A DNA stretch of 64,000 bases from Escherichia coli (lineage in GTDB: Bacteria; Pseudomonadota; Gammaproteobacteria; Enterobacterales; Enterobacteriaceae). The stretch lies in assembly GCF_003790525.1 (NCBI RefSeq), contig NZ_CP033635.1. One strand, written 5' to 3'. How positions within the stretch are numbered: the stretch's first letter is position 1; each line of letters starts with the position of its first letter. Made by a program: the position numbers. Shown piece by piece: positions 61,201 to 64,000 of the stretch.

Positions 61201-64000
61201 TAAATACTTCATGTAGTTATGGTCAAATGCCGTCATCTTTAGAATTAGCGCAGCGGCCAAGCGGTGGGGTAGTACCGCGAAAAGTAGGTACGTTGTGGGG
61301 CGAATATGGTAATTTAAAAACTTATGGGAACGCTTTTAGCGGTACGGATTATTGGACAAGCACTCAGCTCATGGGAGTACACGAGAAATTTAATCCTGAA
61401 ACTGGTATATCAGAGCTTGGAACAGGAAAGTCCTCTGGCTTGTGCGTAGAGTATTATTAACGAAGTAATCACTAAATTGCCCTGCATCAGCAGGGCAATT
61501 TATATTCGTTATTACGCAGAAGTACGCATCACACCAATAGTATTAAATTCATTTTTTACACTGAGCAAACGGGGGTCATGAAGCAAAACATTTGACCATA
61601 AATCATTCTCTTTAATTAATTGTTGCCAGCGCTTTTCATATTCTTTCTTACCATAAACAGTGTAAATTAACGGCAAAATCACACCATTGATTTTGTTAGT
61701 GTTAATATTTGCCAGTAACTTCATAATGTCATTTTTTATAGATGCGCCATAGATCAGAAACTTCGTATAAAGCGAGTTAACGCAGGTGTAATCAAGACCA
61801 TGTTCAGGCTCAAGTTTAAGCAATAAACTTTTGGCTTTGTCATTATGTCCTTTCAGTGCCATGAACATAGCCAGAATAGAGGTAATAATTGGATTATTAC
61901 AGGTGTTTTGACTGTTAAGATTTAATGCAAAAGATATCGCGTTATCGAGGGGGGATGTGTAATAAAGTATAATTAATTTAAGAATGCTTATGCCCATTTT
62001 ATTGGGTTCAAGAGCAATGCTTTTTTCTATTAAATTAAATGCTCTTGCAAGGTCGCCGTTCAAAAAATATAGCAGCGACTGATAATAATAAACGTCTGGC
62101 GAATTAGGTTTGAGTAAATGTGCTTGCTTAAATAGCACATTAGACACTGAATGTTCATCTTTTAGCCCACTGATTAAACCCAGTAAACCCAATGCCTGAG
62201 AATTTGAAGGGTTAATTTCCAGAGCCTTTTCAATGGAGGTTACTGCCGTAGTTATTGCTTGTTTTTGTTCACTGATTCCAAGGAGTGCTAATGATATATG
62301 GCATTCCGCCAGGCAACAGTAGGGCAAGGTATTTTGCGGTTGCGTACTCACACAATCTCTAAATATTACTAATGCTCGTTTCAAACTTTCTGGTGTATAA
62401 CGGTACATTTCCATCCTGCCATTCATATACATAACAGCAGAATCCAGAGATGGCATTTGTTGTGTATTAATAGATTTAAAATTAATGTTGGGTATTTTTT
62501 CAATAAGAATATTAATTACTTGTGATAATAATACGGAAAGAGGATTATCGGGGTTGAAATCAATACTTTGATGATCAATCAATTTATGCGTTCTGGCATG
62601 GATTAACTCAATAAATAAACGCCAGTTTTTACCATAGTGAACGACCTGACCCATAATATAATATTCTGGACCTGTTTTATTGATAAACTGATGGATGGTG
62701 GAGAAATCACTGGCCTCATTTGTTACCGAAGCGGGTAAAATATCTAAACCACAAAAAGCATATTTTGAAAGGCCCTGGACAAGTTCGTAATGGAGTTTTA
62801 GAACATTGATCGAACCTTCAGTACGAAAGGGAAAAACGGCAAGAGTGGTGGTCGACTTTACCGGTTCATTATCGGTCACAATCACAATAGGTACAGTAAA
62901 ACGGTATCCACGACCATAGACCGTTTCGATATACTTACACTGTTTATTCTCATGCAAAAGTTTGCGCAATGCATAAATACATCGTGTTAGAGATTCATCA
63001 CTGGCAACACTTGCGCTCCAGACCTTATCGATAATCTCTTCTTTGCTAACAATTTCACCGTCAGCATTAAGTAATAGAATGATAACGCCAAGTTCTTTCG
63101 GGGGAATATGATATTCTTTGTTTTTGAATAATAATATTCCATTGTTTTTTAATACAAAGTCGCCAAATATATATTGTTGTGTATTATTTTTTCCATGTTG
63201 CAGTTGCATAGAACGCTCCTTCCGTTTTCTCTATTCATAGTATTAATTTGATTAATATAAAATAAAGTATTGGCAGAATTGCTCTATCAAAAAACGCTCA
63301 TTTTGTAAGATTGTGATGAAGAAATGAATGAAAGCAGATGCTTAATAATATGAAACGCTGGTCCCATTTTTCGGGACCAGATAGTAGGCGATAATTGTGG
63401 GTGTTACTTAATCAGAAACGTAAATAATCTTTCGCTGAATCAAACAACGCAGTAATGGTTGAAGATAATAATTTGATAATTGTATCGTAGGTGGAGTTGG
63501 CTGTACTGTATTTAGTCGTGATAACCTGCACGTCGGTTTTCATGTTTTCTGCCTGGCCGTTATAACCCGCCAGCCATGCCTGGTATTCAGCTGTGCTTAT
63601 TTCATAACCGGTGAATTCTTTAGATATATTTTTTTCCTTCCCTTTATCGTCCCTATGCACCATTGAGTCTGAAGACTGACTCATACTGTCAATAATCTGA
63701 GGGTTGGGAATAATAACATACAGACCGCTACCTTGCGGTTCAACTTCGACAATCGGAGAAGGTGTGCGGTGTTTGGGATCGGGTGGAATTACCGGAAGTC
63801 CTAAAGCGGCGTACCATTTTTCTGCTTCTTCTAGTGGTACACCAATTTTGTCAGCAGGTGCCGGAGGGTATAAAACATAGTCTGGATTGTAATGATAGTG
63901 GAAATCACCATTAGGATATTTATCGATATAATAAAAATGCATCAAGGCTTTTTGGAATGCATTGACGTCAAAAACTATCGCATCGCCTTTTTTATTAGAG

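Follow-up and report, generated by a model that had tools for sequence, protein, structure and literature searches.

eilA of the selC-B/eip island in an Escherichia coli genome, with two candidate promoter elements as leads

This study concerns one open reading frame (ORF) in a 64,000-nucleotide stretch of Escherichia coli DNA (contig NZ_CP033635.1 of assembly GCF_003790525.1, hereafter the window), where a first-pass annotation had placed a HilA-type regulator in an AT-rich block, convergent with a giant adhesin gene. The best joint explanation of the data, including the regulatory steps proposed below, is that this gene is eilA of the selC-B/eip island and encodes a HilA-like transcriptional regulator, and we consider this very probable. 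The position of the ORF, its GC content and the HilA-family model all agree with that placement. This is a correct reading of a gene that is known, named and experimentally characterised, and in itself it adds nothing new. The island with eilA, air and the eip genes is already in use as a virulence marker of enteroaggregative E. coli (EAEC) and extraintestinal pathogenic E. coli (ExPEC), and the regulatory link has been published. What goes beyond the known gene are leads, namely two cis-elements, two orphan genes preceded by one of them, and the loss in strain SMS-3-5 of the cryptic second type III secretion system of E. coli (ETT2). The possible value of these by-products is modest and lies in ETT2, whose regulon and function are still unclear.

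The regulator gene and its relatives

Window positions 61300-63400 are a 100% match to E. coli SMS-3-5 (NC_010498.1), in which the ORF is annotated eilA. The ORF starts with ATG, preceded at about 8 nt by a GGAGG, and keeps an intact frame (coordinates of all features are collected in Table 1). GC content is 35.6% in eilA and 36.7% in the block 61461-64000, while the window as a whole has 51.1% and air has 54.3%. The horizontally acquired AT-rich island that had been suspected here agrees with the selC-B/eip island, the name under which the eip locus has been described (PMC7058095).

The NCBIfam equivalog model NF009037 ('HilA/EilA family virulence transcriptional regulator') gives EilA 953.6 bits where the cut-off is 589, and the alignment runs over the full length, with EilA residues 1-552 on positions 2-553 of the 553-position profile. 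The resemblance to HilA is thus specific rather than generic. The YgeH equivalog NF008870 gave 229 bits, under its cut-off of 800, so the protein is not YgeH; K-12 YgeH is 32% identical to it over 456 residues (E 1e-70). The N-terminal HilA-like DNA-binding domain of the first-pass annotation was recovered as a winged helix at residues 31-104, and the long TPR-like region behind it is borne out by weak Pfam matches (ANAPC3 at 363-425, E 2.8e-4; TPR_2 at 371-403, E 1.7e-3) and by consensus-TPR proteins in the PDB. The Pfam scan found no receiver (Response_reg) domain in EilA, and the winged helix is itself N-terminal, which sets the protein apart from OmpR/PhoB two-component response regulators. 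No membrane anchor was detected by hydrophobicity, the highest Kyte-Doolittle mean over 19 residues being 1.45 with a threshold of 1.6, so it is not of the membrane-bound ToxR/CadC type either. EilA is a cytoplasmic activator with an N-terminal winged helix, no receiver domain and a TPR-containing helical region behind it.

These results bear on the alternative that the gene encodes a generic ToxR/CadC/OmpR-type regulator whose likeness to HilA is limited to the winged helix. The N-terminal domain does match the CadC, ToxR, PhoB and VanR models, and residues 31-111 match PDB sequences of CadC (5ju7, E 3.2e-10) and of the ToxR DNA-binding domain (about 1e-5). However, the CadC model reaches only 51 bits against a cut-off of 400, and over the DNA-binding domain only, and response-regulator models stay below 40 bits, whereas the HilA/EilA model covers the full length; receiver domain and transmembrane-like segment are both missing. 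Additionally, eilA adjoins homologues of sipD, sipC, sipB and sicA, in keeping with a family encoded with type III secretion genes of the type carried by pathogenicity island 1 of Salmonella (SPI-1). Functional replacement of HilA has also been published, since a Salmonella hilA mutant regains SipA secretion and invF transcription with either EilA or YgeH of EAEC 042 (PMC4210603). The generic reading is already refuted and its probability is negligible.

EilA of the window and EilA of EAEC 042 are identical at 561 of 565 residues (99.3%), and their genes differ by 26 synonymous and 4 nonsynonymous codon changes. The gene is intact, and compared with the 042 allele it is under purifying selection. 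According to PMC4210603 and PMC7058095, EilA of 042 controls eaeX/air, eipB, eipC, eipD and eicA together with eivF and eivA in the unlinked ETT2, and adherence and biofilm are reduced in eilA or air/eaeX mutants of 042. An eilA promoter reporter was active in bloodstream isolates of sequence type 69 (PMC7058095). The earlier expectation that the regulator would act on the adjacent adhesin or on a distant locus fits these published results on air and the ETT2 genes. The link between eilA and air was described in 2006 and has been known for about twenty years.

Two statements of the first-pass annotation have to be corrected. YgeH was taken to be the sole HilA homologue of E. coli, which is wrong, as EilA was named in 2006 and RefSeq uses that name for this ORF. 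The pairing of regulator and adhesin was called unusual, whereas this is how the selC-B/eip island is normally laid out. Of 5426 complete E. coli genomes, 730 carry the region 61300-63400, and among the matches listed the ORF is annotated 'HilA family transcriptional regulator EilA' and its neighbour mostly EaeX/Air or IatC. This distribution does not sustain the novelty of the gene.

The pairing extends beyond E. coli. Escherichia albertii carries a 76%-identical EilA at the equivalent chromosomal site, where eicA-eipBCD-eilA faces a gene for an inverse autotransporter of 1763 aa, an air orthologue with the Pfam domains IAT_beta, Big_1 and Invasin_D3. The gene order eicA-eipB-eipC-eipD-eilA facing air is common to SMS-3-5, 042 and E. 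albertii. Some E. coli have a second, divergent eip-like island elsewhere, with a 563-aa EilA paralogue (57% identical) and the order inverse-autotransporter gene, transposase fragment, chaperone, SseC-like gene, a gene listed as unknown, SipD-like gene and EilA paralogue. Since both E. albertii and the paralogous island show it, the combination of regulator and adhesin is a recurrent feature of Escherichia and not an oddity of the window. In Escherichia fergusonii and Yersinia enterocolitica, 51-54%-identical homologues occupy an SPI-1-like position beside iagB-like and prgHIJK-orgA genes.

Two candidate promoter elements

The upstream regions of eilA and eicA have ATGAGCG-WW-TTTTGATA in common, and a 17-bp element with the consensus ATGAGCGWWTTTTGATA (box 2) recurs in front of type III secretion genes. 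We infer from its sequence that box 2 is a promoter element of the InvF/MxiE type, which remains an unverified lead. Its pattern matches three times in the window, where 0.08 matches are expected, and 22 times at up to two mismatches in 485 kb of loci, where block shuffles gave 0-2. Twenty of these 22 matches are followed after 30-213 nt by a gene on the same strand that is linked to type III secretion or is a candidate for such a link, and the other two represent one relic site between setC and rhuM.

Box 2 precedes eilA in E. coli and E. albertii and the hilA homologues of E. fergusonii and Y. enterocolitica. It also precedes eicA in E. coli, E. albertii and the divergent island, where it is kept at the chaperone gene but not at the regulator gene, and it stands before ygeF-ygeG in ETT2 of 042. 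Further copies lie before the 042 effector genes espL3', espX3 and espY5 (named in PMC2808357, Table S7), and espY4 has one at 3 mismatches; taken together, the box-like sites of espL3', espY4, espX3 and espY5 differ from the pattern at 1-3 positions, are correctly oriented and stand 47-124 nt before the gene. The remaining instances precede a Yersinia pentapeptide-repeat gene and two uncharacterised genes of the window. With up to 3 mismatches allowed, box 2 was not found upstream of eivF, eprH or air.

Most instances are followed 20-22 nt further on by a -10-like hexamer, which is the geometry of a site overlapping the -35 element; in the eilA promoter this hexamer is TATTTT (63259-63264), 20 nt downstream of the box. 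The sicA promoter of Salmonella has CATTGGGCGTTTTTTGAATG at the equivalent place, identical to the eilA box at 13 of 17 positions, with TTTAAT 20 nt downstream. In PMC7595419 the InvF site that was confirmed by Darwin and Miller is said to overlap the -35 element of sicA, a statement of position. The MxiE box of Shigella, GTATCGTTTTTTTAnAG (consensus from PMC9769918), agrees with box 2 at 11-12 of its 16 specified positions, and the core CG-TTTTT-A-AG is common to both. A literature search returned no relevant paper with the box 2 sequence or with a named EivF or InvF box.

The relic site, ATGAGCTATTTTTGATA on the plus strand outside the window, lies between setC and an rhuM fragment, has one mismatch and is followed by no sizeable ORF. 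It is conserved in 042 and may be what is left of a lost box-controlled gene. As a separate observation, SMS-3-5 is without espL3' between mnmE and tnaC.

The two uncharacterised window genes lie in an islet of 35.9% GC between ilvN and uhpA (window 38080-41323, plus strand) and are paralogues (27% identical), each with a perfect copy of the box upstream (Table 1). The islet occurs in 1110 of 5426 complete E. coli genomes, 643 of which carry at least 80% of it. The first ORF is probably under-annotated. RefSeq covers only its last 160 codons (ECSMS35_RS29340, window 39123-39605), whereas 431 codons from the ATG at 38310 are uninterrupted in both SMS-3-5 and 042 and are paralogous over most of their length to the 479-aa protein. 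Neither protein matched a Pfam or NCBIfam family, all homologues with a source name are called 'hypothetical protein [Escherichia coli]', and many matches are unnamed metagenomic sequences. Identity with the EspL, EspX or EspY effectors was rejected, the two proteins not being among those listed for 042.

A second element, a direct repeat resembling a HilA box (box 1), was found by comparing promoters that have no box 2 and that are published or expected targets of HilA-type regulators. Its pattern, TCATCA-N5-TNNTCATG, occurs in ETT2 of 042 at 51 nt before eivF and at 60 nt before eprH, and in the window at 67 nt before air. Exact matches number two in the 34-kb ETT2 locus and two in the window, with 0.01 expected in each. 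The prgH homologue of Y. enterocolitica has an exact copy 62 nt upstream (0.00 expected), and that of E. fergusonii has one at a single mismatch. Because the pattern was derived from the air, eivF and eprH sites themselves, these two matches, which are independent of the derivation, are the real test of box 1. The repeat before air is accordingly put forward on sequence grounds as a candidate site for a HilA-type regulator, an unverified lead and a weaker one than box 2. A tentative form of the HilA box, TNNCAT-N5-TNNCAT, has no match upstream of air, eilA or eicA. A looser repeat, TNATCA-N5-TNATCA, was dropped; its 10 matches against 0-4 in shuffles did not rise above background, and several lay inside genes.

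A possible two-box circuit and the loss of ETT2

The two elements suggest a circuit that has not been described before. EilA and YgeH would read box 1 at eivF, eprH and air, while EivF together with a SicA-like chaperone would read box 2 at eicA-eipBCD, ygeFG, espL3', espX3, espY4, espY5, eilA and the two window genes. We put this forward tentatively and rate it at somewhat less than an even chance. EilA would act on air directly, through the repeat TCATCA-N5-TAATCATG, which the promoters of air, eivF and eprH have in common. Box 2 would drive both eilA itself and the eicA-eipBCD operon, and would be read by the AraC-type regulator EivF of ETT2 with EicA or YgeG as the SicA-like chaperone. EilA would then control the eip operon by an indirect route, in a cascade of the HilA-InvF-SicA type with feedback of EivF onto eilA.

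SMS-3-5 differs from this arrangement in one important respect. Its glyU locus (NC_010498.1, 3076170-3078039) consists of yqeG, yqeH, IS1A, tRNA-Gly and actS, whereas the equivalent interval of 042 holds about 27 kb of ETT2, including ygeG, ygeH, eprH-K, eivF and the export apparatus. At glyU, its canonical site, ETT2 has been lost from SMS-3-5 together with ygeH, eivF and the secretion apparatus. Because this locus is without ETT2, the targets eivF and eivA and the apparatus for Eip secretion are absent from the canonical site, and of the published EilA targets only air and the eip genes can be located in SMS-3-5. With no EivF at glyU, air would be the only locatable target with a direct EilA-type site.

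One alternative, the main one for SMS-3-5, is that eilA and the eip genes form a remnant in decay, intact only because the deletion of ETT2 and EivF is recent, in which the regulator would have no useful target left. IS1A replaces ETT2 between yqeH and glyU, the eip genes code for translocon and needle-tip proteins, which depend on a secretion apparatus, and widespread attrition of ETT2 is on record (PMC7058095). However, eilA, eicA, eipB, eipC, eipD and air are all annotated as intact in SMS-3-5, and the predominance of synonymous over nonsynonymous changes in eilA relative to the functional 042 allele (26 and only 4) speaks against decay. Moreover, air is independent of the secretion apparatus and carries a candidate EilA site. 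We therefore regard the remnant explanation as unlikely.

A different alternative is that EilA acts directly through box 2 (ATGAGCGWWTTTTGATA) on the eip operon and on its own promoter, with no EivF between. The length of the element, hexamer-N5-hexamer, would fit tandem winged-helix binding, and four HilA-family genes from three genera have the box about 95-110 nt before their start codon. Dependence of the eip genes on EilA is published (PMC4210603), and SMS-3-5 keeps both EilA and perfectly conserved boxes where EivF is lost. On the other hand, eivF is a published EilA target, yet neither its promoter nor that of eprH has the box at up to 3 mismatches, and the two hexamers of box 2 agree at only 3 of 6 positions. 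The match of 13 out of 17 positions falls on the -35 region of the sicA promoter, where PMC7595419 puts the InvF site, and the genes behind the box are chaperone and effector genes, the type of regulon expected of InvF and MxiE. Direct action of EilA on box 2 thus appears improbable.

Several points weigh against the two-box circuit itself. EivF with YgeG failed to activate two genuine MxiE-box genes (PMC9241512), a result that would fit a separate EivF box but is no proof that EivF binds box 2. The box 2 sites are perfectly kept in SMS-3-5 although eivF is gone, which implies either that the loss is recent or that another protein reads the box. The absence of ETT2 and of an InvF-like regulator in this strain was assessed at the glyU site only. 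The pattern of box 1 was derived post hoc, three of its matches having served to define it, and its likeness to a HilA box is provisional. An exact copy also lies within the adeQ coding sequence (window 49020-49038, plus strand; one mismatch in E. albertii), which is probably a chance or coding-constrained match and indicates that the pattern is not fully specific, and the air promoter of E. albertii conserves the repeat only in part, in the looser form TTATCA-N5-CTATCA. Additionally, the published work on EilA function concerns the 042 protein and not SMS-3-5, and the results of Sheikh et al. 2006 (Mol Microbiol 61:338) are cited here second-hand through PMC4210603 and PMC7058095.

If box 1 is real, air is wired directly to EilA through an element that the apparatus operons also use. 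Should the two-box circuit as a whole be true, the Air adhesin would be a direct member of the regulon of the master regulator, eilA would be under positive feedback, and the two Escherichia-specific window genes would be new type III substrates; in strains without ETT2, such as SMS-3-5, the circuit would reduce to the pair of regulator and adhesin. Once defined, boxes of the EivF and HilA types would allow the ETT2 regulon to be listed and effectors to be nominated from sequence, and would help explain why eilA and air persist where the secretion apparatus has been lost.

Neighbouring features and comparison with known systems

In the orientation of the window, RefSeq gives the order nepI, air (+), eilA (-), eipD (-), eipC and eipB (SseC/YopB family), followed by a small ORF, eicA (SycD/LcrH-family chaperone), yicS, nlpA, yicL, setC and phage-like genes. 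The stop codons of the convergent air and eilA genes are 51 bp apart, with a hairpin in the gap that is a likely shared terminator (Table 1). A further terminator-like hairpin follows eipD, and E. albertii has a hairpin of other sequence at the equivalent place. A tRNA scan of the window found none, selC lying beyond the window end, and a scan of 61200-64000 for sigma-70 promoters gave no useful signal (13 sites, 11.0 expected).

The air gene is itself a mosaic, the core of its Ig-like repeats (window 55500-59500, plus strand) having 61-62% GC, as against 35-43% in its 3' end and the eilA/eip genes. Its length varies with the number of repeats, from 1763 aa in E. albertii to 2933 aa in SMS-3-5 and 3806 aa in 042. 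Between yicN and nepI, immediately before the island on its air side, lies a pair of genes for a RelE/ParE-family toxin and a helix-turn-helix antitoxin (window 50378-51038, minus strand), which is also found in 042.

Table 1. Features of the window, with coordinates counted from its first nucleotide
Feature	Position	Strand	Basis
InvF/MxiE-like box ATGAGCGATTTTTGATA, 213 nt upstream of the 431-aa ORF	38080..38096	+	Pattern scan, perfect copy
Uncharacterised 431-aa ORF, candidate type III secretion substrate	38310..39605	+	ORF listing, box upstream
InvF/MxiE-like box ATGAGCGATTTTTGATA, upstream of the 479/500-aa ORF	39688..39704	+	Pattern scan, perfect copy
Uncharacterised 479-aa paralogue, candidate type III secretion substrate	39884..41323	+	ORF listing, box upstream
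HilA-box-like direct repeat TCATCAtttgcTAATCATG, 67 nt upstream of the air start codon; candidate EilA binding site	52573..52591	+	Pattern scan
air/eaeX, inverse-autotransporter adhesin with Ig-like repeats, 2933 aa	52659..61460	+	ORF listing, RefSeq
Perfect 13-bp-stem hairpin in the air-eilA gap, likely shared terminator	61473..61502	.	Hairpin scan
eilA coding sequence, 565 aa, HilA-family transcriptional regulator	61512..63209	-	ORF listing; RefSeq WP_001176830.1 'HilA family transcriptional regulator EilA'
TPR-like helical region of EilA (about residues 300-425)	61935..62312	-	Weak Pfam matches; PDB consensus-TPR proteins at 320-404
OmpR/PhoB-type winged-helix DNA-binding domain of EilA (residues 31-104)	62898..63119	-	Pfam PF00486 Trans_reg_C, E 8e-16
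InvF/MxiE-like box ATGAGCGTTTTTTGATA, eilA promoter	63285..63301	-	Begins 95 nt before the ATG; box end to ATG 75 nt
Terminator-like hairpin after eipD, separating the eicA-eipBCD operon from eilA	63358..63380	-	Hairpin scan
eipD 3' part, SipD/IpaD-family needle-tip protein, runs past the window end	63412..64000	-	TIGR02553, E 3.8e-26; RefSeq NC_010498.1

The closest known system is that of EAEC 042, whose EilA is likewise 565 aa long and differs from the one studied here at only four residues. Both strains have eicA-eipBCD-eilA convergent with air between yicS and nepI, and the promoter elements are alike. They differ in that SMS-3-5, without ETT2 at glyU, lacks the distant targets eivF and eivA, and in that its Air is the shorter of the two, in line with published variation in repeat number (PMC7058095).

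Salmonella HilA belongs to the same equivalog family (NF009037), although only 37% similarity to EilA has been reported (PMC4210603). Both proteins combine a winged helix with TPRs, both are linked to genes of the sicA-sipBCD type, and EilA of 042 restores invF and sipA expression in a hilA mutant. However, eilA adjoins a translocator operon and an adhesin gene, not prgH or iagB, and no homologues of the SPI-1 regulators HilD, HilC and RtsA were seen in the eip island. To our knowledge an InvF-type box has not been described in the hilA promoter, whereas the eilA promoter has such a box. Promoters read by InvF-SicA and MxiE-IpgC resemble those with box 2 in sequence, in the overlap with the -35 position and in the chaperone or effector genes downstream; box 2 differs from both in its consensus and in that it also fronts the gene of a master regulator.

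YgeH of ETT2 is also a HilA-family protein, and its 042 allele complements hilA. At 458 aa it is without the C-terminal 110 or so residues of EilA, and its gene lies in the glyU island that is deleted in SMS-3-5. Outside the HilA family, the nearest parallel is the MarT-MisL pair of Salmonella SPI-3, where a ToxR-like winged-helix regulator is encoded beside an autotransporter adhesin gene that it activates, on a horizontally acquired island. That pair differs from EilA and Air in that MarT is not of the HilA family, MisL is a classical and not an inverse autotransporter, and there is no link to type III secretion.

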